From Candidatus Omnitrophota bacterium (GTDB lineage: Bacteria; Omnitrophota; Gorgyraeia; 2-01-FULL-45-10): a DNA stretch of 64,000 bases. The stretch lies in assembly GCA_026387175.1 (NCBI GenBank), contig JAPLME010000008.1, positions 13,091-77,090 of the forward strand, written 5' to 3'. This document shows positions 19,275 to 55,310 of the stretch, one piece after another; the stretch's first letter is position 1; every line of letters starts with the position of its first letter. The translations under genes were made by a program, and so were the position numbers. A model generated the notes under the pieces. The model was given only the letters and a program-made list of their open reading frames with translations. It was not told the DNA's origin and did not search any database.

Positions 19275-22200
19275 TTGGCGGATACCGATAATAAAGATTC
19301 AGGGCCTTTAAACGAATATCTGGTAGATGGCAAATATTCGATAAAGGACCTTGTCGACATTAAAGGGCTGCGCCCTATATTCGAAATGCTGTCTGAATTG
19401 ACCGGAGTCGCGATAGGGCTTAACTCATATCCGGATGAGGAGATCCTGGTAGCTACGGCATGGTCGGATATCTGCACAAAATTCCATAGAGCCAACCCCG
19501 AATCGGCCAAGGCCTGCCTTAAGAGCAATTTGGCTTTGAGCGGTAAACTGAAAAAAGCCGGCGACATTAACATCGAGTATTGCGATAACGGGTTGGTGGA
19601 CGGCGGGACGCCTATAATAGTTAAAGACAAGCATATCGCGACGCTTTTCGCGGGGCAGGTCTTTTTTCATAAGCCCGATATTGAAAAATTCAAAGAGCAG
19701 GCCCGAGTTTTCGGATACGATACTGAGAGATACCTGGAAGCCGTTAATAAAGTAAGTGTTATTACGAGCGAGAGATTCAAGTCAGTCCTTTCATTGCTTG
19801 GCAGGATAGCCTCATTAATCGCGGAGTTGGGCTATAACAACCTGGAAGTCAAGAACAGAAATCTGGGGCTTCGGGATGATGTGCTCTACCGCGAGAAGGC
19901 CGAAGCCAGGATAATACATCTTAACTCCATCCTTAGAGCAATCAGCAGCGTATCCCAGCTTATGATAAAAGAAAAGGACAGGAGCGCACTTCTCGCAAAA
20001 ACTTGCCGTATATTGGTCGATAGCAGGAATTACCGTCTGGCATGGATAGGGTTGATCGAAAATGGGACGTTTGAGATAAAGCCTGCTGCTTGCGCGGGCT
20101 TTGATGATGGATATCTTGAAAGTATTCATGTCACCTGGGATGATTCACCGAACGGCCAGGGTCCTACAGGTATAACCGTAAAGACAAGAAAACCGTCTAT
20201 AGCAAACGATATTGCCACCGATCCAAGTTTCGCGAACTGGCGGGGTGAGGCGATAAGACGCGGTTATCGTGCTATGGTCTCAGTGCCCGTAGTCATGGAG
20301 GAGCGTATTTACGGTGTCATAAATGTATATTCCGATCACCCTAATGCCTTTGACGAACAGGAGGTCAGCCTGCTTGCCGAATTGGCCGGAGATCTGGGAT
20401 TTGCTTTATACACCGCGGAGATCGAATCAGAGAGGCGGGAATCTGAAAAGGCCCTGGTTGTGTCGGAGGAGAGTTATCGTTCCATATTCGATTCGGCAAA
20501 TGACGCGATCTTCATCCAAGACATAGAAACGGGCCGAATAATAGACGTCAACCAGAAGGCCTGCCAGATGTATTTGTACAGTGAGAATGAGATGCTGCAC
20601 CGCAGCATAGGAGACTTGAGCCTTGGCGAGAGCCCGTATACACAGGAAGACATGATCAATGTAATAAATAAGACTTCCAGCGGAGAGCCGCAGCTGTTTG
20701 AATGGGTCGCGAAAGACAGGGCCGAGAGGCTCTTCTGGGTGGAGATCAATCTGAAACGGGCCGTAATAAACGGAAAATACCAGATACTGGCGATTGTGCG
20801 CGATATCACCGATCGTAAAAATACGGAAGAGAGATGGGAGAAGATACACGAGACATTCCTGAGCTTCGGGCCCGACCCTTCTGAAAACATTAACAAGCTT
20901 ACCGCCTTGTGCGGAGAGATCATGGGCGCCGACTGTGCCATGTATAACAGGCTCGAGGGCGAAACATTGCATTCATGCGGACAATGGAACGTGCCGCCCG
21001 GGTTTCAGGAGATGGATATGGCTCAGGGCCATATCTGTTACGATGTTATTAAGAAAGGCTCCGATGATATAACCGTTATAAGCAATCTTCAGGAGAGCGG
21101 GTATGCCGAGACCGATCCCAACGTTAGAAGCTACAATCTCCATACATATGTCGGGCAGGCCGTAAAAGTCGGCGGCGAATATATCGGCACATTATGCGTG
21201 GTATACCAGCAGGATATCGAGCCTTCGGATGAAGACAAAGAGATAATGGGCTTCATCGCGCACGCCATAAGCGTCGAAGAGGAGCGCAAGAGCTCGGAAG
21301 AGATAAACCAGATGGCGCAGTTCGCGATCGAGCGTTCCGGCAGCTCTGTATTCTGGATAGGTCCGGATGCCCGGATCCTGCATGTCAATGATATGGCGTG
21401 CACATCCTTAGGATATTCACGCGAAGAGTTATTGGCCATGACCGTATCCGATATAGATCCGAGTTATTCCGGAGATGTCTGGCCGCGGCATTGGAAAGAG
21501 ATCAAAGATCGCGGTTCCTTCCTTATTGAGACGCAGCATCGCCGGAAAGATGGCACTACATTTCTGGTGGAGGTCTCTGTCAATTATCTTGAGTTCCAGG
21601 GCAACGAATATAATTTCGCGTCCGCCCGGGATATAACAGAACGAAAGGCCCAGGAGGAAGAGCTGGTCAGGCGCGACTATCAGCTCGAGATCCTTTCGCG
21701 CACCAGCCAGCATATTAACGCGATCCTGGAAGTGCCGACGATATTGAGAACGCTGATAGCCGCGGCTATAGAGCTTGTCGATGCCACCGCCGGAACGGCG
21801 GGAGTGGTGGTGGGCGATAATGTGGTATTCAAAGAATACCACAAGGATGGCAAAATTTATTCTGTCGATTATACATTTAAGCCCGGCGAGGGCCTGTGCG
21901 GATGCATAACAAAGTCGTTGAGGACGTATATCTCCAATGACGTTGAACATGATCCCAGCGTGCTTCCTGAATTTAAGGAGATGCTCGGGCTGCATAACCT
22001 GATCAGCATACCGATATTGAACAGGGAAGGAAAACTGCTCGGATGCCTGGAGCTATATAACAAGAAGGATGCCAGGCAGTTCGATGCCCAGGATGTCTTT
22101 ATGCTTCAAGGCATGGCGGCTGGAGCGGCCGTAGCGCTCGAGAACGCCAATATGCTCGTGCAGCGTAATAAGAGCCAGGAAGAGCTCGCGTGGCAAAAGA

Positions 22201-23846
22201 TGTTTTATGAGAATCTTCTGAACGAAGCGAATATATGGATAGAGGTTGTGGATAAGGAAGGGAAGACCCTGCTGTGGAATAAAAAAGCTGAGGAGATCAC
22301 CGGTTTTAAAAGAGAAGAGATCATAGGTAATCTGAAAAAATGGGAGCTGGAATATCCGGATCCGAAGCAGAGGGGCAGGCTTATTAATTTTGTAAAAAAG
22401 TTAATACCCTCAGGTAAAAATATAAAAGATCTCGAGACCGAGATAGCGACGTTGGTGAACGGTACGAAGACGATGTCATGGTCTTCCACGATAATCTGCG
22501 ACAGCTATGGCAAGATAATAGGCAGCATGTTTCTCGGTAACGATGTTACGGAACGCAAGGCTATCGAGAAGGAAAGGGAATCCCTCAATAAAGAGCTTAC
22601 CAAGACTAACAAGAGATTGAGCCAGCTTGCCCTGAAAGACTTCGAGACAGGACTGCATAATCACCACTATCTGATGGAAGCGATAGAGCCGGAACTCTAT
22701 CGGGCCAAGCGTTACGTCCATCCGCTATCGGTGGTAATGATAGATATCGATTATTTCAGGTCCATCAACGACCTTTATGGCCACGAATTCGGCGACATGG
22801 TATTGAAGCAGTTTGCGACTCAGCTGAAAAAGATGGTGCGCCGCTATGACATAGTGGTGCGTTTCGGGGGAGAAGAGTTTATAATACTCTCTTCCGGCGC
22901 GGACAGGACAAGGGCCATTGCCCTCGCGCACAGGCTCATGGAAGCGTTATCCATCTACAATTTCGGCGACGACAAACATTCCGTGAAGATCAGGATGAGT
23001 ATGGCGGTGGCATCATATCCGGATGACCCGATCGAGAACGGGATGGATCTCGTGCATCTTGCCGAGAAGCTGCTGGACAAGGCGAAGGAGGCCGGCGGGA
23101 ACAAAGTATTTTCTTCGATAGACACTAAGAACGGCAAAAAACACGTACCTGTCGAAAGCGAGCCGACCGATATCCAGTATCTCAAAAAGAAGATATCGAG
23201 CCTTACGAAACGCGGAAGGCAGAGCCTGATGGAGTCTATCTTCGCTTTTGCCAAGACTATCGAGATGAGGGACCATTATACGGGCGAGCACGCTGATTCC
23301 ACCGTCCACTACGCGACCCAGATAGCGAGGGCATTGAAGCTCGAACAGGAAGAGATAGACCATGTGAGGCAGGCTGCAATATTGCATGACCTGGGCAAGG
23401 TTGGCATAAGCGACAAGATCCTGCTGAAGAGATCCAAGCTCACCAAAAAAGAATTTGATGAGATTAAAAAACATCCGCAGATCGCGGCTGATATAATAAG
23501 GCCGATACAGTTTATGAAAGATATAATACCGCTCATTCTTTATCATCATGAAAAATGGAACGGTACCGGTTACCCTATGGGTATAAAGGGCCAGTCGATC
23601 CCCGTGGGCGCAAGAATAATATCGATAGCGGACGTTTACCAGGCGTTGACTTCGGACAGGCCTTATAGAAAAGCTTTCTCGAAGAAAGAGGCGATGAAGA
23701 TATTAAAAGAGAACGTGGGGATACAATTCGATCCGAAGATAGTCAGGATATTTCTCAATATATTAAAAGGGGAAAAAGACAGGCGTCGTCCTGCGGTACC
23801 CGCAGGCAATGAACATGAGCATGAGAGGGCAAAGGGAAAGGTATGA
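19275..23846 (+). CDS. 1523-aa multi-sensor c-di-GMP signalling protein with a Cys-containing N-terminal sensor region (possibly PocR-like), several PAS and GAF domains, a GGDEF domain (GGEEF intact) and an HD-GYP domain.
   Basis: RFGGEEF lies at about nt 22860. The HD-GYP signature HDLGKVG...HHEKWNGTGYP lies at about nt 23385-23590. PAS-like repeats are followed by TERK/DITERK linkers. Confidence 0.85.
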   Translation: MADTDNKDSGPLNEYLVDGKYSIKDLVDIKGLRPIFEMLSELTGVAIGLNSYPDEEILVATAWSDICTKFHRANPESAKACLKSNLALSGKLKKAGDINIEYCDNGLVDGGTPIIVKDKHIATLFAGQVFFHKPDIEKFKEQARVFGYDTERYLEAVNKVSVITSERFKSVLSLLGRIASLIAELGYNNLEVKNRNLGLRDDVLYREKAEARIIHLNSILRAISSVSQLMIKEKDRSALLAKTCRILVDSRNYRLAWIGLIENGTFEIKPAACAGFDDGYLESIHVTWDDSPNGQGPTGITVKTRKPSIANDIATDPSFANWRGEAIRRGYRAMVSVPVVMEERIYGVINVYSDHPNAFDEQEVSLLAELAGDLGFALYTAEIESERRESEKALVVSEESYRSIFDSANDAIFIQDIETGRIIDVNQKACQMYLYSENEMLHRSIGDLSLGESPYTQEDMINVINKTSSGEPQLFEWVAKDRAERLFWVEINLKRAVINGKYQILAIVRDITDRKNTEERWEKIHETFLSFGPDPSENINKLTALCGEIMGADCAMYNRLEGETLHSCGQWNVPPGFQEMDMAQGHICYDVIKKGSDDITVISNLQESGYAETDPNVRSYNLHTYVGQAVKVGGEYIGTLCVVYQQDIEPSDEDKEIMGFIAHAISVEEERKSSEEINQMAQFAIERSGSSVFWIGPDARILHVNDMACTSLGYSREELLAMTVSDIDPSYSGDVWPRHWKEIKDRGSFLIETQHRRKDGTTFLVEVSVNYLEFQGNEYNFASARDITERKAQEEELVRRDYQLEILSRTSQHINAILEVPTILRTLIAAAIELVDATAGTAGVVVGDNVVFKEYHKDGKIYSVDYTFKPGEGLCGCITKSLRTYISNDVEHDPSVLPEFKEMLGLHNLISIPILNREGKLLGCLELYNKKDARQFDAQDVFMLQGMAAGAAVALENANMLVQRNKSQEELAWQKMFYENLLNEANIWIEVVDKEGKTLLWNKKAEEITGFKREEIIGNLKKWELEYPDPKQRGRLINFVKKLIPSGKNIKDLETEIATLVNGTKTMSWSSTIICDSYGKIIGSMFLGNDVTERKAIEKERESLNKELTKTNKRLSQLALKDFETGLHNHHYLMEAIEPELYRAKRYVHPLSVVMIDIDYFRSINDLYGHEFGDMVLKQFATQLKKMVRRYDIVVRFGGEEFIILSSGADRTRAIALAHRLMEALSIYNFGDDKHSVKIRMSMAVASYPDDPIENGMDLVHLAEKLLDKAKEAGGNKVFSSIDTKNGKKHVPVESEPTDIQYLKKKISSLTKRGRQSLMESIFAFAKTIEMRDHYTGEHADSTVHYATQIARALKLEQEEIDHVRQAAILHDLGKVGISDKILLKRSKLTKKEFDEIKKHPQIAADIIRPIQFMKDIIPLILYHHEKWNGTGYPMGIKGQSIPVGARIISIADVYQALTSDRPYRKAFSKKEAMKILKENVGIQFDPKIVRIFLNILKGEKDRRRPAVPAGNEHEHERAKGKV

Positions 23847-42740: not shown

Positions 42741-44303
42741 ATGTCTAAAAAATACTACATAACCACTCCGCTTTACTATGTAAATTCCAAACCGCACATA
42801 GGGCACTCCTACACTCAGGTAGCCTGCGATACGCTGGCGAGATTCCTGCGCCAGAGCGCGCGCGACGTATTCTTTATGACCGGCACCGATGAGCATGGCG
42901 AGAAGATCGAGAAAGCCACGATCGCCGCAGGCCTTAAAGAAGGCGAAGAACAGAAATTCGTAGATGGGATCGTCCCCGTATTTAAGGGTCTCTGGGAAAA
43001 GCTTAATATCAAATACGATTACTTTATCCGCACCACAGACGCCTATCACATAAATACGGTACAGTCTTTCCTCGATAGGCTGTACAAGGACGGGAAGATA
43101 TATAAGAAGGATTATAAGGGATGGTTTTGCACGCCCTGCGAGACTTTCTGGACCCATACCCAGAGTCCCGACGGTATCTGCCCCGACTGCAAGCGTCCGC
43201 TCGAGAAACTCGATGAGTCAAATTATTTCCTTAAGACATCGGAGCATCAGAAGTGGCTCATTGATCATATAAATAATAATCCCGGCTTTATAAAACCCGA
43301 CTTCCGGAAGAATGAAGTGCTGGGATTTCTTAAGAATGAGGAACTCATGGATCTGTGCGTCACCAGGCCGAAGGCGAGGATGAGCTGGGGCATAGAGGTG
43401 CCTTTCGACAAAGACTATGTCACATATGTATGGTTCGACGCGCTCATCAATTACGTATCCGGGATAGGCTATCCGCACGACATGGAAAGGTTTGTGCAGA
43501 TGTGGCCCGCCGATGTCCATGTAATAGGCAAAGATATACTGAGGCATCATGCTGTATACTGGACGATAATGCTGCATGCGCTCGGTCTAGAGTTGCCGAA
43601 GACGATATTCGCGCACGGGTGGTGGGTAATAAAGGGCGAGAAGATGTCGAAGTCGAAAGGTAATGTCGTAGATCCGATCGATATCGTTTCGCGGTTCGGA
43701 GTGGATCCGTACAGGTATTTTCTTTTGAGAGAAGTGCAATTCGGAATGGACGGGACATTCAGCGAAGAGGCACTCATCACCAGATATAACAGCGATCTTG
43801 CCAATGACATCGGGAATTTACTTAGCAGGACTCTCACAATGGCGGATAAATATTTTGCGGGCGTTGTCCCTGACGTATCAAATATAAAAATTAATAATTC
43901 CGCAGCCGAAGAGATAAGGACCAAAGCGATACAAGCTGCTCACGAAATGGAGAACTTGATTCCGAATTTCGATTTCGCCACCGCTCTGGCCAGGATATGG
44001 GAAGTGATAGGCTTATCTAATAAATTTATTGAGAATTCAAAGCCCTGGACACTTGCAAAAGAGAAGAAAGAGGACGAACTGGCGCTGGTGATCTACACGC
44101 TTTTGGAGGCGTTAAGAATAGTGGCCATAGAGATATATCCGTTTATGCCCGAAACCTCGGAAAAGATGCTCACGCAATTAGGGGTGAAAGAGAAAGCCGA
44201 TAATCTATTTTCTAACGCAAAAATCTGGGGCAAACTTGCCAGTGGTATAAAAGTCAGCAAGTCCGGCCCACTCTTTCCGCGTATCAATACTAAGCATGAT
44301 TAG
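42741..44303 (+). CDS. metG: Methionyl-tRNA synthetase (short form, without the C-terminal dimerisation domain)
   Basis: HIGH (PHIGHSY), KMSKS and a Zn-knuckle (CTPCETF...CPDC). Confidence 0.9.
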   Translation: MSKKYYITTPLYYVNSKPHIGHSYTQVACDTLARFLRQSARDVFFMTGTDEHGEKIEKATIAAGLKEGEEQKFVDGIVPVFKGLWEKLNIKYDYFIRTTDAYHINTVQSFLDRLYKDGKIYKKDYKGWFCTPCETFWTHTQSPDGICPDCKRPLEKLDESNYFLKTSEHQKWLIDHINNNPGFIKPDFRKNEVLGFLKNEELMDLCVTRPKARMSWGIEVPFDKDYVTYVWFDALINYVSGIGYPHDMERFVQMWPADVHVIGKDILRHHAVYWTIMLHALGLELPKTIFAHGWWVIKGEKMSKSKGNVVDPIDIVSRFGVDPYRYFLLREVQFGMDGTFSEEALITRYNSDLANDIGNLLSRTLTMADKYFAGVVPDVSNIKINNSAAEEIRTKAIQAAHEMENLIPNFDFATALARIWEVIGLSNKFIENSKPWTLAKEKKEDELALVIYTLLEALRIVAIEIYPFMPETSEKMLTQLGVKEKADNLFSNAKIWGKLASGIKVSKSGPLFPRINTKHD

Positions 44304-44315
44304 TAGGAAAAAATA

Positions 44316-44368
44316 GGGACTGTCCCCAGACCGTAATCTAAGCGAGGTGGGGACTGTCCCATTTTTTC
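44316..44368 (+). terminator. Rho-independent terminator after metG. The stem is formed by GGGACTGTCCCC and GGGGACTGTCCC (one central mismatch) around a 21-nt loop, followed by a T-run (ATTTTTT).
   Basis: Read directly from the sequence at 13 nt after the metG stop. Confidence 0.55.
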
Positions 44369-44389
44369 CAAGCAATCTTCTTCTAGCTA

Positions 44390-44417
44390 TTGACATTCTG
44401 GTATTATATGATATACT
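44390..44417 (+). promoter_or_regulatory. Sigma70-like promoter TTGACA-N16-TATACT in the AT-rich leader of the giant ORF.
   Basis: Hexamers were read from the sequence. About 130 nt of AT-rich leader lie before the first in-frame ATG. Confidence 0.45.
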
Positions 44418-44547
44418 TAAGTTAGGATAAAGGTTGTTATAAGTGTGTGTTTTTATGCAGTATCCCGCCTTAAATAAATAAATCAAAACGATTAACCAAA
44501 GGGGTTAGTGTAGCTATAATAACGTTTAACATGCTCAGGGTTTATTC

Positions 44548-47500
44548 ATGTTAAGCGCTAAAAAAGATAGCTATGCTTCTATTGACTTAACCACTCCATA
44601 TGCTATACTGAATACTATGTATATCTTCAAAATGCAGTATAGTATTCTATTTAGAGCTATAGCGCTATTTGTCGCATGTTTATTCCTGGCCAATGATATA
44701 AGTTGGGCTGTTCCTTCCAGTTATTCAAATTATTTAGAAACTACTACCACTCTTGCCGTAGAATCCAGGCTCAAACCTTTCTTCGAAAAACACGGTTTAG
44801 ATTTCCAGAATATGTTTAGCGTATATTGTGTAACTGCTGAACTGCGAAACCTGATCATGAAGAGAGAAGTAAGAGATAGCGATATTGTAAGGCTGAACAG
44901 GAATTTACCCCAAGATGAAATCCAGATAGAAAGAGAAACCGTAAAATCCAAATTCATTAAAGCCGCTTCCTTTGAGTCTACCGGAAAAGATTACAAATAC
45001 GCTATCCTCAATTTTAAAAAATCCGGAAAGCGGATTAAAATGGCATTTGTCGACAGTAAACTCGAAAGCAGTGAGCGATTAGAGCTCGGGATCAAAACCG
45101 AAAATGATATAGATCATTTTTCTAGTCCAGGCCTTGAGGGAGTCTGGTTTATTAATATTAAGCCTTCATCGAACTTCGGTTCTGGAAATGCAGCGCAGAC
45201 CATTTATGAAATGCTATCTTCTTACGGTGATAAAGAAGACATTCTGTCTGATCATGGCAAGAGGGTGCTTGCCTGTATACGAGACGGCTCTGTTTCATCT
45301 GATATTCTAGGTTTTGATATCAATAAGCTTCGCGGCTCAACGTTGCCGCAGGCCATCGAGCAGTTGGTCTTGCCGGTGGAACATGGTGGCTTAAATAACG
45401 GCAAAAACTCTTTCTTCATATCGCCCGAAGAATATCTTGAAAAGAACCCACAATGGGCGTCTTCAAGATTTTCAATCTTCCCCAAATCGATTCGATTGGT
45501 AAAAGGTTGTAATAATGATTGCCTCTTTTGCCTGGCTGAGGGACGTAGATCTGTTCAGTCTCTACCTTACCCGATTGCCGCACAGCGCATTCTACGAACA
45601 CATTTTAAAAGGGATGGTATGAGAGGTCGAGCAAGAGCTGTAGCCTATTACCACGGAGATGAGGATATTTTTCACTATATCGATAAAATATGCGGCGCCA
45701 ATATAGCTGACCTGATCTCCTTTGAGCAAAAATTCCCGAGTCCAGTCCGATTTTATACCGAAATGTACACGGCGGGATATTCTCCGTTCGACCCTTCGAT
45801 GGCGTATGTTAAAGATGCGATCGGACAATTACGGGGACAGAAGATCAATGAAAGAACGTACAGAATCTTTATCACATATCATCTATTCAGGCCTGAAATC
45901 GAAGAAGCGATTCTGCAAAAGGACAAAGGTAAGTTAATAAGGGCCGTGAGGGCGTATATGCGGATGTATAAAGAACTTTTTCTTTGCCAGCCCGGCCTGG
46001 AAGTATTGAATAGATCGGCTCTCGAAGAAGATGCGAACTCTTCAAGGGTCATAAAGACGATCGCCGCGATACAGGCTCAGGTGCTGAAGCATCTGAAGAA
46101 TGAAGATGAGACTAAAGAAGCATCTCCGGTATTCTATGATAGATGTATTAATTGGACGCGAGGCCATAAAGCGAAATCCGAGTTTGAGCGCCTGCGTAAA
46201 GCCGAATCCGAAGATCCTGAACTGACCGCCTTTTTAGATAGTTTGGTTATCGAAGAAATTGTGGCAGGATGGGGCGCCCCGCCGAACGCCGGCCCTGAAA
46301 GCCCAGCACAGAAAGGTATGTCCACACACGACACGCCCTCTATAGATACTGGTAAGCTTATTGAGGCAAACGAAGCGTTATCAAGAGTTGAAAATTACCT
46401 CAGATCCGATAAAATTGTTATTTTTGGGGATATGCATCGCGGAGAACTAAAGCCACAGGATGATGAAGTTTGGGATCGCGAACTTTTTCTCGATTATGTT
46501 GAACAGATGGGAAAGCTCTCGATGAATTTTTCGGTTGCGCTGGAGTTACCTTATCAACTCGAAGATAAACTTAACGATCCTTCCGTTTCAGTAGAAGAAT
46601 TTCTGGATGAATACTATAAACTTATAGCTAATGAATATTCTGATGAAATTACCAGAATAAATAGCGAAATACGAGGACCTTACTTATATCGGTTGTTAAC
46701 TGCTCTGAAACACTTCAAGATACCCGTTATTCTTATTGGTGACATTAATGGCCAGCTCAATGGCGGGTTTACAACCATAGATAGAATAGAACAATCCAAT
46801 GAAGATATGACGCGGAAACTTTTGGAAGGACGAAAGAAATATTCGAATGATTCTGTCTTAGTGATGGTAGGGAGAAACCATGTGGTGCCAAAGGTTAATC
46901 CTATCTGGCTCGGTGGGCGTGAGATAAATTCCATACCAGAAATGTTACGAGAGTCTGCAACCAATGTTAAATTAATCCGACCCGATGATATTCAACATGA
47001 CGAAGAGGATTTGGCGAAATTTGACCTGGTCATAAAAGTCGATGGGGAGCGCCAAAATGAATACCTGGCAAGGCAGAAAGACATGTCTATGCGTGATGCA
47101 TCTCCTATAGATAGAAACGGGCTCAGCTCTTTACTTTTTACGCGAAACCGAGATGGCGAGATATTTTTGAATATACCGGTTTTTGAAAAGATCGTTAATA
47201 GCGTTCATTCCAGCCGGGTTTTGGGTAGCGCGCGGTATTTATCTGATCTTGAGGGGTTTGTCCCGTTATCAAAATGTAAGAACGACATAGATATAATGCT
47301 ATTTAATCAGATTGGCGCAAAAGATAAGAGCGCGATAATAGCCAAACTTGTTACGGAACTTGAAAAATATGGAATTGTGAAGATAGGACAAAATGGGGAA
47401 TCCGTCACCGTAAGATTTCCCGGTTCCGAAGAGAACGCGGTCCTTCACATAACGGATCAATGGAATCTTAATACCATCATATACGATATTGTAAGATACC

Positions 47501-50500
47501 AAGGCAACTGTTTATCGATGCTGCAGAAAATAAGGGAAGGTGATATAGGGCCTTCCCTGTCGGATAAAACCGTAAAGATATACCTTTCGGTAAGCTACTA
47601 TTTTGGCGATCCTGAGCTTTACAGAAGTAGGCTACGGGAGTTTTTGGACTGCAAAAACGAACATGAATTTGAAAAACTAAAAGACATTATATTCCGTCAG
47701 GATTTGGATACCCTTGCCGAAAGAATGCACAGTCTTTTGGACGAAGAGAAGCTGGGGGTGGTAAGAGAACGGATTAATATGAAAGAGCCTTTAGAGTCTT
47801 CAAGAATGGGTACAAATTCAGCTTTGGATCTGACCGCGCTTGTTAATAAGTTGGTCGAGGAAATAAGCTCAAAGCAAGCACCCGAGTGGATGGCTCAAGC
47901 TTATCGGCCCGGGCGAGTACTTGTCAGCGCAGAGCGCGAAGGGAATGACACAATTGACGCCAAAATTAAACAGGCCAAACAGCATATTATGCTGGCCACA
48001 CAAGACCCTATTTTGCAAGCCAGGGCCGAACAAGCATTAGAGTTATTACGCCGACATCCACGAGTGCCTGAGCTCATGATTTTAGAGTTTGAAGGAGTTG
48101 CTCACCGTTTGATCAAACTTATTACAGGAAACGAACAGGCTTATCAGGAATACAAGAGAAAGCTGGATGAGGCGATCCAGCCTCTATATCTACAAATCCG
48201 TGATCAGATTCTCAAAATTCCAGATCGAAAGGAAGCGCTTCGTACTGCAGTAATTTACGCCGGTATTGTAAATCTTCTGGATATTACACATGCGGCTTCT
48301 ATACAGGAGATAGCTGATGGCCTAGGGGTAAAAATCGATTTTAGTAAAGGATTGCCTTCGCCTACAGATATTCAATATGTGCTCAATAAAGTATATGAAT
48401 ATGTTGTCAATGAAAAGGCTATTATTATCGATGAACTGGAAGATTTTCTGGCCCGTCTGGAAAAAAATCCGCCGGGAGGAACGATCCTTTACTTTACCGA
48501 TAATCATGGAGAGTTCACTTTCGATCAATTAGTTATCGAACAACTTCTCTTAGCCGGCTATAAGGTTGCCGTAGTTAGCCGCGGCGAGACCGTACGTGAT
48601 GACGTAACGCGGGATGAGGCTACCACGCTTTTGAAAGCTAACCCTAATTTTAGAGCTTTTTTTGCCGACGGCCGCCTAACTGTAACAACAGACGGTTCCT
48701 ACTTTCTCGGGGCAGATTTAAATCAGTCCACCCAGCACCCTGATTTTCTTGCCGCCTGGCGTCAATCCGTTGGATATATTTCCAAAGGTGCCGGGAACTT
48801 CCACACATTATTTGGTCAGCGCCTTTCTTTGCCTGGCCTTTATATTCGCATGATGAAAAAGTCACAAAATTCGTATCAACTTCTTGAAGAGGCACGCGGC
48901 CTGACATTTTCTAAAAAAACGCCGTATGATTTAGCATTAGTTTATCAGCCCGAGGTCTCTTCAAATGGAGTGTCCCCGCGCCCTGGATGGGCTCCGCTTG
49001 CTGGAACCGACGAGTCGACTATCTCTCGTTACGGTTTTCAAGGGAAGCTCATTGCGACGGATCTTGACGGGCTCTTTGAAAAAATCGGTGACATGGTTGC
49101 GGAAAAAGATGGCAGGCTCTTAGCCGTGGACGGGCTGGCTTCTGCGGGGAAAACGACACTGGTAAAAGGCAATAACGCGCTTCAGGTTAAAGGGCTTAAA
49201 ACATATCTGGAAAACCGGTTTGGCCGGCCGGTCATATGTCTTGAAAGAGATTGGTTCTTGAAAAGTCGAGAAGAACGAAAAGCTGTTTGTGCCCACCTGC
49301 ATCCCGATGAAATTTTTACAGAAGAAGCAGAAACACATTTTGATAATGAAGCCTATGTGCAAAAACTTACCGAAGTCCTTGAGTTTTTAAATACAAAAGG
49401 GCCTCCGGGAGAAACATATCAACTGAAAGGAAAGGCTTATAATTGGATTTCCGAAAAAGTAGATGCCGATCTTTCCGATATGGGTTATGTTCCGCCCATT
49501 CCCCGCAACGCCATAGTGATTGTTGAAGGACAACATACTCTTGCAAAAACAAATCCAGGCTTTTTTGACGTGAAAGTATTTGTCGATGTTGCGGATACTG
49601 GTAAGACTCTCGAGAGGGCTGTCCAAAAAGAAATGGGAAGGGATGAAGTTCGCCGGCGAAGCGCGGATGACATCAGAAAAAGAATGAGGCAAGTAGACAT
49701 CCCATCTTCTCGGGCGCTTCAGGAGCGCGGAAATTACATGGAGCATATGGACTTTGTTGTTATGAACGATGACCTTAGCCGACCGTTGATTTATCAATCC
49801 ATGGGAGGAGACGCTCTGCTGAAGGCAAATGAGGGCGATGTATCCTTGCCAATTTCTGGGAAAATTTCGCCTGCCGGGTCGATATATAGCGTATTCGAAT
49901 ATCTTTGCGAACATAATATAACGGATAAGTACCATGCTATCAGTGGCAACATACTGGCAAAAGCCGTAGGAGAGGAACATGTGGTAAGGCAGAAAGCCCT
50001 ATCTCCCAAAAGCATAGAAAGGGACCTGAGAGCATTATTGCGCCTGCGTCTTATTAAAAAAGGACCCAGGATCGGCACTGCTAAAGACGCGCCATATTAT
50101 GTTCCGGAAGCTGTTAAGAAGAAGGCCTATAGAATACTTCCTGTCCTTGAGCAATTCAGAGGCCGCGATCTCCGGCCTACAATACCCCGCCTTGATGATG
50201 TTTATAAAAATCAAATATTACCAATTCTTACAGAGTCCGATATCGGCAGCGCTACGCTGGCGTTCCGGTTAATGAATGCGTTGACATATGCAGATGTAAA
50301 AGAAGATTTTAATGTCATGGTTACTTATAAATGCCCTTTTAATTGCTCCCATTGTCTGGCGAAAGACGCACTAAGGGTTGGCAAGGGAAAGGATGCTGAA
50401 AAAGGCCAGTTGTTCGCGTTATTCGATCAGCTTAAAGGATTTAAGAGGATACACATCGTTGGTCCGGGTGAACCTCTGGCATATGGTAAAGATAAACTGC

Positions 50501-52836
50501 TAAAGCCCGGCATCAGTAAAGATTTTCTCGAGGTCATTCGATATGCCGCGGAACGTATAGAGGAAATTCGCATTGTCACTAACGGTTATCTTTTTCCGGA
50601 AGATATAGATGAAGCAAGGCGATTTTTCGCGCAATTCCCAAAAAATATATTATGGCAACTTTCCGTTGATAAATTTCATGAAGAGCAGTTTGCGCGTATG
50701 CCGGGCAGGGACAAAGATTCCCTTCAAAGAGTGGTAAAGGTTATGGAGCAATTAGCCGAGGAAGGTTTAATAAAGACCGCATATATAGCGCGGATCGAGC
50801 CGGGCGAATCCAGCAGGAATCTTATAGGGTATTTCGATTTGGAGAGTAAATATTATTCCGACTACAAGAGTATTTTTATAAACAAGGTTGTAGCTCAAGG
50901 CAGCGCCATTGCGAATATAGCTACTGCGAAGCCGCTTGATAATGAGGACGTTAGAAATCACGGCTTTGTTCCCAGTAAGCTCTTTCCTTTTATTGACACC
51001 GAGGGCAATTTCGTTACATCAGATCATGTGGCGTATATGACGGGAAATCAGAGAAAAGAGCTATCAAAGAAAATTCCTAAGAGAGCTATGGTAGTAGGCA
51101 ATATCAATTCTTCTCCATTAGGGAAGATCATCGCGGATAGACTCATATTTGGTAATTACAAAGACTGGATTTACATAGAAGAACTTGACCGGGTTACCTT
51201 TAAAGATGTGGTAAGAGCCCTGATACTCTATCAAAATGGGGATAAGAAGACGGCCATGTCAACCATGTTAAGTTTATTCAGGAAAAGCATAGAAAGCCCA
51301 AAGGAAATATTAAAAATCACCCACCATCTCACGGATCGCTTAAAAGACATCTCACTAATAAATTTTATCGAAGATTGTGAAAATAACGGGATTACTATTA
51401 TTGAAAGACAGGGAAAGAATAAAATTGATTTAGCTATGGCTGTGGGGATATTTCAGAAAAGGACAGACGTTTACCGTGACTTTGCAGAAGCGTTCGCTGA
51501 AGAGTATGAGGCTGAAGAAAGTAAGATACCTCTTCTTTATTTTTATGGTCCCTGTCCGATTTATGGTGTCTCATCAGGGTACTTTCAATTTCGAAATGAT
51601 AATGAGAGATTCTTCTCCGGAAGAGATCGCGGTTTTTATATTTCTATGCGCACAGGTTCGCCCGATGTTATTGAGGAACGTTTTATTAAAGATATGGAAC
51701 TTGCCGCGGATGGTATTGTGCACCATCCTGTTGGAGCGCTATATGATAAAAGAGATAGAAACTATCATTATGTAGTGGTGGAAGAAAATGGCGTAGACGT
51801 AGATGATGCGACTGAAATCAATGAGTTTGTCAGTGAGGCAGTTTTAGTGAACTACCACAAAGATAGTAAAATAGGCTGGAATATTAAAAAAATAGGCGAA
51901 TTTGCGGCAAAGCTCGATAAACACAATGTTAGTATAACAGCTAATGACTGCCGCAGATACAATACTATGCTATTACAGCGTAACAATGGCGATATTATGC
52001 TCTGGGGCCATTACACAGTTAAACGTGATCCTTGGGCGCCTAGCGCAAAAGACATGTTTAATGAACTGTTTCATGAAACACTTGAACGCGCATTTTCTCC
52101 GAAAGATAATAGATTAAAGTATTTAATGAAAATAGTGGACACCAATTTTATAAAAGGATATAACTCCGAATTTAATAAAGGTGGCATAGTGCGCTCGAAG
52201 GATATTATGCCACAGCCGCTCTTGGTATCAGTCCAAGAAGAAGCGTCCAAAATACATGCTGAAAATCTTGAGCATACCCCAGCTATACCGGATAAGACAA
52301 TAATATGCCACATCATCGCGGGTTCGATACTCCCTGCAGGGCAAAGAAATGTGCTAAAGACGCTTGAACAGAATATGAGAGATGAGAAATACAGCGAGAA
52401 AGTGGTGTCGCTATCAGTCGAAGATTCGGGCAGCCCGGAAGAGTTTATGAAGGAATTGGAAATCATAAAGGCCCGCGAGGAAGCCAAATATCCAGGTTAT
52501 AAAGTCCAATTCGACGTCGCCTGTCCTGATAAAGATCTTGTGAGTGCGATACAGGACAAAGGAATGCGCGCGCTCGCTTTCGCTAAAGAAGGAGACGGTG
52601 ATATAGTCCAGGTTGAAGGCATTATCTTGGCCTTGCGGGCTCTCCAGACAGGAAGCATAGATAATCTTATTAAGGTTTACAAGCTTCTCACAGGCAAAGA
52701 ATTCTCGCCAGGTACGAATGATATCAATGAATTAGCAAGGATGATGCTATTTATCCTGCCTGTTCGAAAAGTAGATCTTAACGCCCTCAGTGCACTGAAC
52801 AAAATTATAGAAGAGAATATCAAAACCGCGGCATAA
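44548..52836 (+). CDS. Giant 2762-aa multi-domain protein. Order of elements: signal anchor; radical-SAM core 1 (CNNDCLFC, residues about 321-328); a ChaN/Tiki-like region; a DUF89/ARMT1-like phosphatase-like region (DNHGE and KGAGNFHTL motifs); a PRK/uridine-kinase-type P-loop kinase (GLASAGKTT and VEG...VFVDVADTGKTLERAVQKEMGRD); radical-SAM core 2 (CPFNCSHC, GPGEPL, TNG, residues about 1929-2015); and a C-terminal region of about 600 aa of unknown function.
   Basis: Single uninterrupted ORF of 8.3 kb in a visibly AT-richer island. The motifs were read from the translation. The true start is uncertain (44548, or internal Mets at about 44620 or 44632) because there is no clear SD. Confidence 0.75.
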   Translation: MLSAKKDSYASIDLTTPYAILNTMYIFKMQYSILFRAIALFVACLFLANDISWAVPSSYSNYLETTTTLAVESRLKPFFEKHGLDFQNMFSVYCVTAELRNLIMKREVRDSDIVRLNRNLPQDEIQIERETVKSKFIKAASFESTGKDYKYAILNFKKSGKRIKMAFVDSKLESSERLELGIKTENDIDHFSSPGLEGVWFINIKPSSNFGSGNAAQTIYEMLSSYGDKEDILSDHGKRVLACIRDGSVSSDILGFDINKLRGSTLPQAIEQLVLPVEHGGLNNGKNSFFISPEEYLEKNPQWASSRFSIFPKSIRLVKGCNNDCLFCLAEGRRSVQSLPYPIAAQRILRTHFKRDGMRGRARAVAYYHGDEDIFHYIDKICGANIADLISFEQKFPSPVRFYTEMYTAGYSPFDPSMAYVKDAIGQLRGQKINERTYRIFITYHLFRPEIEEAILQKDKGKLIRAVRAYMRMYKELFLCQPGLEVLNRSALEEDANSSRVIKTIAAIQAQVLKHLKNEDETKEASPVFYDRCINWTRGHKAKSEFERLRKAESEDPELTAFLDSLVIEEIVAGWGAPPNAGPESPAQKGMSTHDTPSIDTGKLIEANEALSRVENYLRSDKIVIFGDMHRGELKPQDDEVWDRELFLDYVEQMGKLSMNFSVALELPYQLEDKLNDPSVSVEEFLDEYYKLIANEYSDEITRINSEIRGPYLYRLLTALKHFKIPVILIGDINGQLNGGFTTIDRIEQSNEDMTRKLLEGRKKYSNDSVLVMVGRNHVVPKVNPIWLGGREINSIPEMLRESATNVKLIRPDDIQHDEEDLAKFDLVIKVDGERQNEYLARQKDMSMRDASPIDRNGLSSLLFTRNRDGEIFLNIPVFEKIVNSVHSSRVLGSARYLSDLEGFVPLSKCKNDIDIMLFNQIGAKDKSAIIAKLVTELEKYGIVKIGQNGESVTVRFPGSEENAVLHITDQWNLNTIIYDIVRYQGNCLSMLQKIREGDIGPSLSDKTVKIYLSVSYYFGDPELYRSRLREFLDCKNEHEFEKLKDIIFRQDLDTLAERMHSLLDEEKLGVVRERINMKEPLESSRMGTNSALDLTALVNKLVEEISSKQAPEWMAQAYRPGRVLVSAEREGNDTIDAKIKQAKQHIMLATQDPILQARAEQALELLRRHPRVPELMILEFEGVAHRLIKLITGNEQAYQEYKRKLDEAIQPLYLQIRDQILKIPDRKEALRTAVIYAGIVNLLDITHAASIQEIADGLGVKIDFSKGLPSPTDIQYVLNKVYEYVVNEKAIIIDELEDFLARLEKNPPGGTILYFTDNHGEFTFDQLVIEQLLLAGYKVAVVSRGETVRDDVTRDEATTLLKANPNFRAFFADGRLTVTTDGSYFLGADLNQSTQHPDFLAAWRQSVGYISKGAGNFHTLFGQRLSLPGLYIRMMKKSQNSYQLLEEARGLTFSKKTPYDLALVYQPEVSSNGVSPRPGWAPLAGTDESTISRYGFQGKLIATDLDGLFEKIGDMVAEKDGRLLAVDGLASAGKTTLVKGNNALQVKGLKTYLENRFGRPVICLERDWFLKSREERKAVCAHLHPDEIFTEEAETHFDNEAYVQKLTEVLEFLNTKGPPGETYQLKGKAYNWISEKVDADLSDMGYVPPIPRNAIVIVEGQHTLAKTNPGFFDVKVFVDVADTGKTLERAVQKEMGRDEVRRRSADDIRKRMRQVDIPSSRALQERGNYMEHMDFVVMNDDLSRPLIYQSMGGDALLKANEGDVSLPISGKISPAGSIYSVFEYLCEHNITDKYHAISGNILAKAVGEEHVVRQKALSPKSIERDLRALLRLRLIKKGPRIGTAKDAPYYVPEAVKKKAYRILPVLEQFRGRDLRPTIPRLDDVYKNQILPILTESDIGSATLAFRLMNALTYADVKEDFNVMVTYKCPFNCSHCLAKDALRVGKGKDAEKGQLFALFDQLKGFKRIHIVGPGEPLAYGKDKLLKPGISKDFLEVIRYAAERIEEIRIVTNGYLFPEDIDEARRFFAQFPKNILWQLSVDKFHEEQFARMPGRDKDSLQRVVKVMEQLAEEGLIKTAYIARIEPGESSRNLIGYFDLESKYYSDYKSIFINKVVAQGSAIANIATAKPLDNEDVRNHGFVPSKLFPFIDTEGNFVTSDHVAYMTGNQRKELSKKIPKRAMVVGNINSSPLGKIIADRLIFGNYKDWIYIEELDRVTFKDVVRALILYQNGDKKTAMSTMLSLFRKSIESPKEILKITHHLTDRLKDISLINFIEDCENNGITIIERQGKNKIDLAMAVGIFQKRTDVYRDFAEAFAEEYEAEESKIPLLYFYGPCPIYGVSSGYFQFRNDNERFFSGRDRGFYISMRTGSPDVIEERFIKDMELAADGIVHHPVGALYDKRDRNYHYVVVEENGVDVDDATEINEFVSEAVLVNYHKDSKIGWNIKKIGEFAAKLDKHNVSITANDCRRYNTMLLQRNNGDIMLWGHYTVKRDPWAPSAKDMFNELFHETLERAFSPKDNRLKYLMKIVDTNFIKGYNSEFNKGGIVRSKDIMPQPLLVSVQEEASKIHAENLEHTPAIPDKTIICHIIAGSILPAGQRNVLKTLEQNMRDEKYSEKVVSLSVEDSGSPEEFMKELEIIKAREEAKYPGYKVQFDVACPDKDLVSAIQDKGMRALAFAKEGDGDIVQVEGIILALRALQTGSIDNLIKVYKLLTGKEFSPGTNDINELARMMLFILPVRKVDLNALSALNKIIEENIKTAA

Positions 52837-52887
52837 AGAGTCCCCTTATTGCTTTTCGTATAGAGTTAGCATATAATTGTATCTATT

Positions 52888-54258
52888 ATGCTGATAGATA
52901 CACATTGCCATCTCGACTTCAAGGATTTCGATCCTGACCGGGATGATGTCATAAATAGAGCATTGAAAGCCGGCGTGATGAAGATAATCAATGTCGCCAG
53001 CTCCATCGAAGGGTCACACCGCTCCGTCGAGCTTGCCAATAAATACGATATGGTCTACGCGACTGTCGGTGTTCATCCGCACGACGCGAAATCTGTTACC
53101 GATAGCGCTATCTCCGAACTCAAAGCGCTTGCCAAAGATAAGAAGGTGGTGGCGATAGGCGAAGTCGGATTGGATTATTATCGCAACCTTTCCCCCAAAG
53201 AAGACCAGGCCTCCGCTTTTAAGAAATTCGTATATCTTGCGCTCGATCTCGATCTGCCGCTTATTATCCACGCGCGGGAAGCCGATCGCGATGCGCTGGA
53301 TATGCTGAAAAGCGAGAAAAGAGATGCCTTGCGCGGCGTCATACACTGTTTTTCTGGCAATGCCGATTTTATGAAAGAATGCCTCGACATAGGATTCTTC
53401 ATATCCTTCACCGCCAATATAACTTTTAAGAAAGCCGACGATTTAAGAATGGTGGCGAGGGATATTCCGCCGGAGAGGCTCTTGCTGGAGACAGACGCGC
53501 CGTTCCTCGCGCCGCAGGCGATGCGCGGCAAGCGCAACGAGCCGGCGTATCTCACTCATCTCGTAGGTGAATGGTCGCGACTCCTCGACCTCTCCAAGGA
53601 TGATGTTGCCAGGATCACTACACATAACGCAAATTCACTGTTTAAGCTCAAACTGGACGAATCATCGAAGATCGCTTATGAGATCAGGGATTCGCTTTAC
53701 TTCAATATAACCAATAGGTGCACCAACTCCTGCGATTTCTGCGTGAGAAATCAGACCTCTTTTGTCAAAGGCCATAATCTTAGGTTGGATGAAGAACCGT
53801 CCGCTGAAGAGATAATAAAAACTATAAACCCCGCGAAGAAATATAAAGAGATAGTATTCTGCGGCTATGGTGAGCCGACCATGCGCCTGGACGTGATAAA
53901 AGAGGTTGCTGGCGCCCTGAAGGCCCGCGGGGGCGTTAAGATCAGGGTTGTGACTAACGGACACGGAGATCTGATAAATTCCAGAAATATCGCCAAAGAG
54001 CTTGCGGGGCTTGTGGATAAAGTTTCGGTGAGCTTGAACACCGATACGGCTGAAGCATATAACAAATACTGTAAGCCTGAATTCGGCCCGGACGCCTATG
54101 GCGCCGTGATCAATTTCATAAAAGACTGCGTAAAAAATAAGATCGAAGTCGAAGTGACGTGCCTGGACCTGCCGGGGGTCGACTTAAAGAGATGTGAAAC
54201 GATAGCGAAAGAGCTGGGTGGTATATTCCGTCCCAGATCGCTCGGGGTGGTCGGATGA
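52888..54258 (+). CDS. TatD-family metal-dependent hydrolase fused to a C-terminal radical SAM domain (TatD-associated rSAM family)
   Basis: N-terminal TatD motifs (IDTHCHLD, GEVGLDY, LPLIIHAR, LETDAPFL). The C-terminus carries CTNSCDFC (Cx3Cx2C), a CGYGEPT motif and VVTNGHG. Confidence 0.8.
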   Translation: MLIDTHCHLDFKDFDPDRDDVINRALKAGVMKIINVASSIEGSHRSVELANKYDMVYATVGVHPHDAKSVTDSAISELKALAKDKKVVAIGEVGLDYYRNLSPKEDQASAFKKFVYLALDLDLPLIIHAREADRDALDMLKSEKRDALRGVIHCFSGNADFMKECLDIGFFISFTANITFKKADDLRMVARDIPPERLLLETDAPFLAPQAMRGKRNEPAYLTHLVGEWSRLLDLSKDDVARITTHNANSLFKLKLDESSKIAYEIRDSLYFNITNRCTNSCDFCVRNQTSFVKGHNLRLDEEPSAEEIIKTINPAKKYKEIVFCGYGEPTMRLDVIKEVAGALKARGGVKIRVVTNGHGDLINSRNIAKELAGLVDKVSVSLNTDTAEAYNKYCKPEFGPDAYGAVINFIKDCVKNKIEVEVTCLDLPGVDLKRCETIAKELGGIFRPRSLGVVG

Positions 54259-55310
54259 GCAGGCTTTCCGGTTTTCTTAAAAGAGAGCGGCTCTACATAC
54301 TTCTTCTCGTATTTGTAACGATAGTGACTGCGTTGATATTGTTTACGCCGTCTGATAAAGTCAAACCTTCAGTCAATGTCGCAGATAAGCCCGCATCCGT
54401 AATGCCGGGAGAGAAGGCTTCAAGTGACCGCGAAGCCGTAGAAAAGGCATTGGCCAAAAATAAATATCTCTCTTTCACCCTCACTCTAATATCGCTTCTT
54501 GTGATTGCGCTATTTTTGCTGGGGGTCATAATAGACACGCTTCTTATATTATCCCGGTCAGAGAGAAATAAGGCTGATATAAGCACTTATAAAGCGCAGA
54601 AAGCAAAGTGGGGAATATGGGACGTTTTCAAAGTCGTCATTCTCTATCTTTTCTTCGTATATATACTACTGATCTCCGAAACTTCTCTTGTACGCGTCTT
54701 TAAGATGCTGAAGGATGATAACTTCAGGATGATCTTGAACACATCAATAATGGACATCCTTGGCATTGCTTTCATATTAAATTTTGTTGTCGTGCAGTAC
54801 AAAACGGGTCTTATATCGCTGGGATTATCGGTAAAGAACTTTTTTAGAAATGTATATTACGGGATCGTCGCCTATATAGCGCTGATACCCGTCCTTATAG
54901 GCATAATATCGGTGATAGCCATCGTGATAAGCCTGACAAAATACTCTCCGCAAAAACAGGCTGTAGTGGAGCTGTTCTTCAAGGAGAAGGACGTGTCGTT
55001 TTTATTATATACGAGCCTCTTCGCGGCTGTGGCCGGCCCGATAGTCGAGGAGATATTCTTCAGGGGGTTTCTTTACAGCGCTATAAAAAAATATATCGGG
55101 ATATTCTGGGCGACGCTTATTTCTGCAGCGTGTTTCGCGCTTCTCCATGCGCACCTGGTCGGGTTCCTGCCTATACTGGCGCTCGGCATTCTTCTCGCAT
55201 ATTTGTATGAGAAGACGGGGACTCTTGTGTCGTCGGTCACTGTACATATGATACATAATATTGGAATGGTGCTTTTAGTCTTTCTTGTAAAGCAGCTGGG
55301 AGTCTATTGA
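54255..55310 (+). CDS. CPBP-family intramembrane metalloprotease (CAAX protease / Abi domain)
   Basis: Multi-TM protein with the EExxxR motif (VEEIFFRGFLY) and conserved FxxxH/H motifs (FALLHAHL, HMIHN). Confidence 0.7.
   Translation: MSRLSGFLKRERLYILLLVFVTIVTALILFTPSDKVKPSVNVADKPASVMPGEKASSDREAVEKALAKNKYLSFTLTLISLLVIALFLLGVIIDTLLILSRSERNKADISTYKAQKAKWGIWDVFKVVILYLFFVYILLISETSLVRVFKMLKDDNFRMILNTSIMDILGIAFILNFVVVQYKTGLISLGLSVKNFFRNVYYGIVAYIALIPVLIGIISVIAIVISLTKYSPQKQAVVELFFKEKDVSFLLYTSLFAAVAGPIVEEIFFRGFLYSAIKKYIGIFWATLISAACFALLHAHLVGFLPILALGILLAYLYEKTGTLVSSVTVHMIHNIGMVLLVFLVKQLGVY

Follow-up and report, generated by a model that had tools for sequence, protein, structure and literature searches.

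A 2,762-codon gene of Candidatus Omnitrophota belongs to a protein family with conserved ends and a variable enzymatic middle

The Omnitrophota, ultra-small bacteria that are widespread and uncultured, are suspected of being parasites or predators, and their multi-enzyme giant proteins pose a recognised puzzle: enzymes needing ATP, S-adenosylmethionine (SAM) or Fe-S clusters are predicted outside the cytoplasm. A smaller protein of the same phylum raises this question again. It is encoded in a stretch of 64,000 nt of contig JAPLME010000008.1 (assembly GCA_026387175.1, Candidatus Omnitrophota), hereafter the window, to whose positions the coordinates below refer unless a locus is named. Within the window, an open reading frame (ORF) at 44548-52836 on the plus strand, like all features described inside it, comprises 2762 codons plus a stop. 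A sequence-only reading had described its product as a secreted or anchored fusion of several enzymes, with an architecture not known from any described protein. What kind of protein is this, and on which side of the membrane would its enzymes work? We found that the protein does not stand alone in its architecture. It is one of an Omnitrophota-restricted family in which two conserved terminal modules bracket shuffled enzymes, an assignment that we regard as practically certain.

A family with shared ends

The six long proteins closest to the query (1,726-4,527 aa) aligned with it only at aa 24-205, with 35-43% identity, and at aa 2556-2762, with 39-73% identity, and their Pfam content between these two regions was entirely different. 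The first region holds a signal-peptide-like segment followed by a domain at 44710..45162 (aa 55-205), with an invariant ESRLKPFFEKHGLDFQN and ending in PGLEGVWF. This N-module, a signal peptide plus an ESRLKPFF domain of about 150 aa, appears to be undescribed. The second region is the C-module (52213..52833, aa 2556-2762), the family-defining alpha/beta domain, which is about 200 aa long, ends in NIKTAA-COOH and likewise seems not to have been described before. Hidden Markov models of the two modules matched 15 complete relatives at E < 1e-60. Both modules stood at the two ends of one ORF in each locus with a complete ORF (L001, L002, L005, L008, L009 with two tandem genes, L010, L011 and L012), where the members ranged from 657 to 2,114 aa, and both were also present in a single ORF in P0002-4, P0006, P0007 and P0051. 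A search with the C-module gave 25 further proteins, mostly fragments. About 50 members of the bracket family were seen in all, of about 650 to 4,527 aa. Among GTDB species representatives the C-module occurred in 18 loci, and these loci, like the 25 proteins, all came from Omnitrophota or from metagenome-assembled genomes (MAGs) carrying a PVC label ('uncultured Planctomycetia'). The cargo found between the ends varied from one member to the next and included SAM methyltransferases, DnaJ, HATPase_c, GNAT, GlcN6P isomerase, MurB, radical SAM, WD40, CheR, protein kinase, HAD, epimerase, PRTase, IMPase and DUF89 domains.

An ORF of this size might be an artefact, that is, an assembly chimera, a string of genes joined by sequencing errors or a decaying pseudogene, and its source (a MAG), its atypical G+C content at third codon positions (GC3) and its large parts without any match could be read in this way. 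The ORF was recovered, however, in an independent assembly: an 11,484-nt contig (L019) of the Logan assembly of run ERR15302166 corresponded to window positions 43630-55113 with 1 mismatch and 0 gaps, and its translation gave the same protein. Since this assembly matches the ORF region, a chimera or an error-fused string of genes is very unlikely. The 8.3 kb of the ORF contain no internal stop, the catalytic motifs are intact, and the family members show the same head-cargo-tail layout, so that an artefact of any of these kinds is extremely improbable. No competing long ORF was found on either strand at 44548-52836, and the NCBI entry, 'MAG: ARMT1-like domain-containing protein [Candidatus Omnitrophica bacterium]' on a 236,877-bp contig, is identical. 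The ORF is therefore a real and intact gene, as the sequence-only reading had held.

Its true start is probably ATG 44617 (Met24), because all homologues begin at the equivalent position and because a promoter-like site, TTGACT-16-TATACT with a TG extension (44582..44609, 10 of 12 positions), ends 8 nt before this codon. It is thus possible that the first 23 annotated codons are not translated and that the protein is made from a leaderless mRNA starting at Met24.

Enzyme modules in the middle region

Between the terminal modules, all the motifs quoted in the sequence-only reading were located at exactly the residues, and in the order, that had been given for them. When the whole protein and isolated segments were searched against Pfam, NCBIfam and the PDB sequences, two of the five Pfam matches predicted in that reading were obtained directly (PF01937 and the second PF04055), and no other Pfam match was found in the protein or its isolated segments. 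One of the two concerned a DUF89/ARMT1-like metal-dependent phosphatase domain (47965..48861, aa 1140-1438), which matched PF01937 at E = 1.8e-22, with 80.4 bits against a cut-off of 25, over profile positions 10-296 of 311. The NCBIfam equivalog 'damage-control phosphatase' was not reached (37.9 bits against a cut-off of 440). The domain is thus solidly predicted to be a member of the DUF89 superfamily, but not an equivalog of the damage-control phosphatase. Equally solid is the prediction of a radical SAM superfamily domain at 50320..50784 (aa 1925-2079), which matched PF04055 at E = 2e-14 (54.5 bits against a cut-off of 29.5) and carries CPFNCSHC at residues 1929-1936, the glycine-rich SAM motif VGPGEPL at 1971-1977, and IVTNG. 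Against NCBIfam, this second radical-SAM core showed a weak and non-specific likeness to mycofactocin maturase, MoaA and viperin-type models.

For the segment that had been read as a PRK-type kinase (49102..49728, aa 1519-1727), with the Walker A motif GLASAGKTT and the stretch VIVEG, neither PF00485 nor any other Pfam model nor any PDB sequence matched, even with the isolated segment. Six collinear NCBIfam matches to nucleoside/nucleotide-kinase and phosphoribulokinase models were obtained below threshold, with E values from 7e-5 to 4e-2 and scores that did not exceed about 21 bits, the cut-offs being 173-281. The kinase call is therefore weak, and we rate the segment as a probable P-loop kinase of the nucleoside/nucleotide-kinase superfamily, not as an established member of the PRK family.

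The region N-terminal to the phosphatase domain (aa 206-1140) was searched against 1.84 billion representative proteins. Only 30 proteins matched, and their matches divide the region into modules A, B and C, which are separate units located in different long proteins. Module A (45187..46290, aa 214-581) contains the CNNDCLFC motif, in which C116, C120 and C123 (CxxxCxxC) were invariant in 16 relatives. PF04055 did not match the query itself but did match 11 of these 16 relatives (best E = 2.7e-6), and the module profile reached just E = 0.3-0.5 at the motif among PDB sequences, which is not significant. The first radical-SAM core of the sequence-only reading thus becomes a divergent domain of radical-SAM type, a view supported only through its relatives. 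Module B (46327..47091, aa 594-848), with GDMH ... VGRNH, had been compared to ChaN/Tiki domains. The residues G38, D39 and H41, together with G186 and H189 (GDxH, GxxH), were invariant in 7 relatives, and two distant relatives came close to the PF04187 cut-off of 27.7 bits, with 25.8 and 27.4 bits (E = 4e-6 and 1e-5), which makes a ChaN/Tiki-like assignment plausible. PF04187 did not match the query, and the profile gave no significant match among PDB sequences. Module C (47122..47841, aa 859-1098) is mobile and has a GS-x-R ... D-I-D motif, with G44, S45, R47, D64 and D66 invariant in 6 relatives. We take the pattern GS-x-R ... D-x-D to be typical of Pol-beta-type nucleotidyltransferases (NTases), and the motif alone suggests that module C may be NTase-like; segment and profile searches gave no Pfam, NCBIfam or PDB sequence match. 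In L001 and P0008, module C adjoins the C-module.

Two further parts of the middle region belong to no family that we could find. A small module of about 130 aa (49840..50238, aa 1765-1897) had no match in Pfam, NCBIfam or PDB sequences, but it occurs twice in the family member P0007, with 37-39% identity at the two places. Nothing in Pfam, NCBIfam or PDB matched a stretch of about 475 aa (50785..52212, aa 2080-2555), and the homologue search gave no match to it either. The sequence-only reading had counted more than 1000 residues that matched nothing recognisable. This holds for these two parts, whereas the N- and C-modules, which were included in the count, turned out to define the family.

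Does this particular set of enzymes serve one pathway? A dedicated enzyme could be imagined in which two radical-SAM enzymes had been added to a PanK4-like unit of kinase and DUF89 damage-control phosphatase, the whole serving one family of metabolites. PanK4 is a eukaryotic pantothenate kinase fused to a DUF89 phosphatase, its kinase being a type II PanK of the actin fold, and the query resembles it in having a kinase-like and a DUF89 domain, here adjacent, in one chain. Judging from what is known of their families, the kinase, the NTase-like module, the phosphatase and a radical SAM enzyme of MoaA or viperin type could also all use nucleotides. The domain order, however, is opposite to that of PanK4, in which the kinase is N-terminal, and the kinase is of a different fold class, P-loop in the query and actin-fold in PanK4; no PanK model of Pfam or NCBIfam matched the query. 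Moreover, the DUF89-kinase pair was kept in no relative, each module recurring in other combinations (in P0005, for instance, DUF89 stands with methyltransferases and IMPase). We therefore dropped the analogy with PanK4 that the sequence-only reading had drawn, because the pair is not conserved, and consider a dedicated pathway enzyme very improbable. Since the relatives share just the two ends, and since modules A, B and C turn up, differently combined, in further long proteins, the enzyme set of the query looks like one draw from a pool of shuffled modules rather than a dedicated or conserved pathway.

Export of the protein and its alternatives

The segment from Met24 to Ala54 (44617..44709) is the sole hydrophobic segment of the protein and resembles a Sec-type signal peptide: its n-region carries a net charge of +2, its hydrophobic core is 12 residues long, and it ends in N-D-I-S-W-A. 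The same n/h/c pattern was present in 18 family members, where the net charge of the n-region lay between +1 and +6, the core in most cases had 12 residues, and N-D-I-[SA]-[WFY]-[AS] followed, with S, A or T at -3 and A or S at -1. This agrees with the N-terminal signal or anchor that had been proposed for the protein, and makes its export rather probable. Other types of signal were considered and rejected. There is a lipobox pattern around Cys44 in the query, yet most relatives have Val at -1; the G/F-T-L-I-E motif of type IV pilin-like leaders is missing, and so is the twin arginine of Tat signals.

Taken as a whole, the explanation that we prefer, and to which we would give about an even chance of being right, is that of a modular enzyme carrier exported by Sec, with a conserved head and tail and a variable cargo. 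The head would direct Sec translocation and be cut after S-W-A, at Ala54, and the N- and C-modules would act as common handling devices for targeting, anchoring or processing. In the query, the cargo comprises, in this order, the radical-SAM module A, the ChaN/Tiki-like, NTase-like, DUF89 and P-loop kinase-like domains, the small module, the second radical-SAM core and the stretch of about 475 aa. These enzymes would act outside the cytoplasm of the producer; the most plausible place is a contacted cell, host or prey, either on its surface or inside it.

The main rival reads the same segment as an uncleaved N-terminal anchor of a cytoplasmic scaffold, with the bulk of the protein and its enzymes inside the cell and the terminal modules docking to a common membrane platform. 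Biochemistry fits this reading better than it fits export, every cargo domain seen needing cytoplasmic cofactors (Fe-S, SAM, ATP, NAD(P)H, FAD, acetyl-CoA), and a C-module without any signal peptide exists as a stand-alone gene. In passages of a 2026 preprint (10.64898/2026.06.07.730766), many long Omnitrophota proteins are also taken to be anchored in the inner membrane with their content in the cytoplasm. The features of the segment itself argue the other way: the positive charges lie N-terminal of the hydrophobic stretch, which predicts the opposite orientation, the 12-residue core is too short to span a membrane, and it is followed by the conserved site with small residues at -3 and -1. 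Weighing both sides, we consider a tethered cytoplasmic scaffold possible and, on balance, unlikely.

The long proteins to which that preprint refers are relevant here. Multi-enzyme giant proteins of Omnitrophota ('Archaeovorin-type' or 'multi-enzyme metabolic cluster') have been reported in two preprints (West-Roberts et al. 2023, 10.1101/2023.11.21.568195; 10.64898/2026.06.07.730766), in line with the remark in the sequence-only reading that giant multidomain genes are a reported hallmark of some candidate phyla. As presented in the relevant passages of these sources, the domain sets of the giants overlap with those seen here, and signal peptides or membrane anchors are predicted for them. 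Like the query, they come from this phylum, tile unrelated intracellular-type enzyme domains in single ORFs and present the same paradox of localisation, and radical SAM, methyltransferase, HAD, HATPase_c and GNAT domains and sugar-phosphate enzymes occur both in them and in the query family. The surveys, in the same passages, deal with proteins of at least 10,000 or at least 30,000 aa, with many transmembrane helices, HEAT/TPR scaffolds and SecA-like and C39/S8 peptidase domains, whereas the query is 2,762 aa long, has a single hydrophobic segment and lacks HEAT/TPR, SecA-like and C39/S8 peptidase domains. The passages on giants in both preprints do not describe a conserved N- and C-terminal bracket. 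The query is thus a smaller relative of the multi-enzyme giants and not a member of that group by size, transmembrane, HEAT or SecA criteria.

The C-module offered another way of viewing the protein. It is predicted to be an alpha/beta domain in which five strands alternate with helices. The Cys in FDVACP and the Gln and Glu in QVEG (C120, Q149, E151) are invariant, a Cys-His after strand 1 is mostly conserved, with Tyr, Arg or Leu in place of the His in three members, and the C-termini of the family almost always read ...N-I-K-x-A-A-COOH. We considered a clan-CD protease for this domain and rejected it, the His not being invariant and no fold match having been found. In a polyprotein reading, which would suit either location, the chain would be cut into separate enzymes and the C-module, with its invariant Cys and its Gln/Glu at the edge of the sheet, would be a processing or regulatory domain. 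Such cutting would be in keeping with the discrete modules and the low-complexity linkers between them, and with the invariant and mostly conserved residues just named; peptidase domains have also been proposed, in passages of the 2023 preprint (10.1101/2023.11.21.568195), as cutters of Omnitrophota giant proteins. The C-module, however, is unlike any known peptidase in sequence or fold, its His varies in the three members mentioned, and no recurring linker motif was seen on reading the module boundaries, all of which leaves a polyprotein improbable.

Returning to the exported carrier, where would its cargo be of use? If the protein is exported, its enzymes would be useful only in the cytoplasm of another cell, because the cargo domains need cytoplasmic cofactors. 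An effector-like reading of this kind fits the host-dependent or predatory lifestyle proposed for Omnitrophota; delivery to another cell is nevertheless doubtful. A further and more speculative step, which we think unlikely, would be that the N-module and the AA-COOH C-module are the recognition elements of a phylum-specific route that carries intracellular-type enzymes from ultra-small Omnitrophota into host or prey cells.

Known systems with a comparable logic exist. Cargo proteins of the type IX secretion system (T9SS) of Bacteroidota have a signal peptide, variable cargo and a conserved C-terminal domain, and the query family follows the same plan: across otherwise unrelated proteins of one phylum, a Sec signal at the N-terminus and a conserved domain at the C-terminus enclose an enzymatic middle that varies. 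The C-terminal domain of T9SS cargo, however, is a beta-sandwich of about 80-100 aa, whereas the C-module is an alpha/beta domain of about 200 aa with no match; the T9SS cargo consists of extracellular-type enzymes, and a conserved N-domain is a feature of the query family. MARTX toxins have conserved terminal regions around variable effector domains plus a cysteine protease domain (CPD). As in the query family, conserved ends enclose a shuffled middle of enzymes that need the cytoplasm of the target cell and that vary among strains. The ends of MARTX, however, are long glycine-rich repeats, and their secretion is of type I, without a Sec signal, whereas the query has no repeats, no RTX motifs and no recognisable CPD. 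T9SS and MARTX are thus alike in logic, and no part of either is homologous to the query family.

The terminal Ala-Ala is not confined to the bracket family. Of the 28 unrelated long proteins found via modules A-C (P0036-P0063), 8 end in Ala-Ala-COOH, which is far above chance, and A, AL or AV forms the end of several others; many of these proteins begin with an N-D-I-x-W-A signal pattern. An Ala-Ala-COOH end recalls the terminus of the ssrA tag, and in the exported carrier it might serve as a fail-safe degron for copies that have not been exported.

Several observations weigh against the exported carrier and its route. What speaks for export is a pattern in the sequence, and radical-SAM Fe-S clusters and ATP-, SAM-, NAD(P)H- or acetyl-CoA-dependent enzymes are not expected to work in the periplasm or outside the cell. 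The terminal modules give no pointer to function, since the C-module has no Pfam or NCBIfam model and no PDB sequence or fold match, and the same holds for the N-module. The bracket is also incomplete in some proteins: L016 and P0057 combine a C-module with a signal-like segment only, in L006 no N-module was detected, and the stand-alone C-module gene mentioned above (P0016) has no signal peptide. Finally, no secretion-system gene adjoins the gene, and none was conspicuous beside the family genes examined.

The particular combination of enzymes in the query is of modest interest; what deserves further study is the bracket family with its pair of undescribed domains. With members down to about 650 aa that keep the same head-cargo-tail layout, the family gives a tractable handle on the puzzle of the giants. 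It provides two compact, well-conserved and apparently undescribed domains usable for expression, for localisation and as search probes, and it makes a clear prediction, namely export with cleavage after S-W-A. Should the terminal modules prove to serve in sorting, candidate effectors could be read off from the variable middle; the delivery route, if true, would amount to a modular effector system of a new kind, similar in logic to T9SS or MARTX and built from unrelated parts.

Composition, transcription signals and neighbouring genes

The gene had been described as lying in a low-GC island. Compared with the 34 other genes of the window, its G+C content was low (0.426 against a mean of 0.487), and its GC3 was 0.406 against 0.577 ± 0.044 (z = -3.9), while GC1 and GC2 were normal. 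The shift towards AT is therefore confined to third, synonymous codon positions. In 7 of 11 other loci the family genes also had a GC3 below that of their neighbours, the exceptions being mostly low-GC hosts, and this fits either exchange between genomes or relaxed codon selection, proving neither. The shift itself was thus confirmed, but other signs of an island were not found: the window contains no tRNA and no integrase, no repeats flank the gene, and its neighbours are housekeeping genes. The region is thus no island in the classical sense. Internal nucleotide repeats were also absent from the gene. The gene lies between metG and tatD, inside a housekeeping cluster with cysS, tmk, holB, a PSP1/RicT-family gene and metG upstream and a tatD-radical-SAM fusion, an Rce1-like protease gene, a DUF362/ferredoxin gene and mtnA-like and thiL-like genes downstream. 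Farther away in the window are murJ, uvrC, secA, lnt, lysS, clpC, alr and ilvD. We take metG and tatD to be neighbours in many bacteria (metS-yabD in Bacillus subtilis), and because these two adjoin so widely the gene looks inserted between them.

Both transcription signals that had been proposed upstream of the gene were found. An intrinsic-terminator hairpin with a U-run follows metG (44306..44369, plus strand), with an RNA folding energy of -36.2 kcal/mol (z = -5.9), equalled by 0 of 200 shuffled sequences. The scan also reported a terminator-like site on the minus strand at the same position, and, the hairpin being flanked by A-runs and T-runs, it could terminate transcription in both directions. 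Its stem (44314-44361) consists of two copies of GGGACTGTCCC, each copy itself nearly palindromic. The putative promoter, TTGACA-16-TATACT with a TG extension (44390..44417, plus strand), is sigma-70-like, matching the consensus at 11 of 12 positions, and is identified by this consensus match only.

Three other genes of the window may be mentioned. Directly downstream, the gene at 52888-54258 (+) encodes a complete TatD-family DNase domain (aa 3-253) fused to a radical-SAM domain (aa 273-441), and contig L019 of the independent assembly carries this fusion as well. At 9601-14028 (+), an ORF of 1,475 aa contains a malic-enzyme core (PF00390/PF03949) at aa 826-1114 within a far longer protein; its GC3 of 0.426 is the only other low value in the window. 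It has a signal-like N-terminus (…SIFVINDLAFG) and the C-terminus …YRVQEFA. Its similarity to the bracket family was limited to the signal-like segment (E = 6e-4 over 31 aa), and a divergent C-module, which we had suspected, was not supported, the hhalign probability being under 1%. We regard the protein as a possible member of a sister family to the bracket proteins. At 19275-23846 (+), a signalling protein of 1,523 aa combines PocR, GAF, several PAS, GGDEF and HD-type domains and has a normal GC3.

In other genomes the family genes tend to cluster. Locus L009 (5639-13615) holds two of them in tandem, and in L005 (62-14998), L001 (2879-5164) and L007 (6086-11950) further long ORFs lie on either side of the family gene, most of them with signal-like N-termini and all of them ending in …MWAA, …MQFA, …MWSV, …LTAA or …LRDA. 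The pattern points to a wider superfamily of such proteins or to neighbourhoods of their genes. The stand-alone C-module gene (P0016; L020, 7030-8487) encodes 273 aa ending in …SAL and lies downstream of a PAS/HisKA sensor kinase gene. The spacer that precedes it, when translated, shows a recurring RGATRASAREMPRPEG-like unit, a sign of a tandem DNA repeat of about 45-50 nt.

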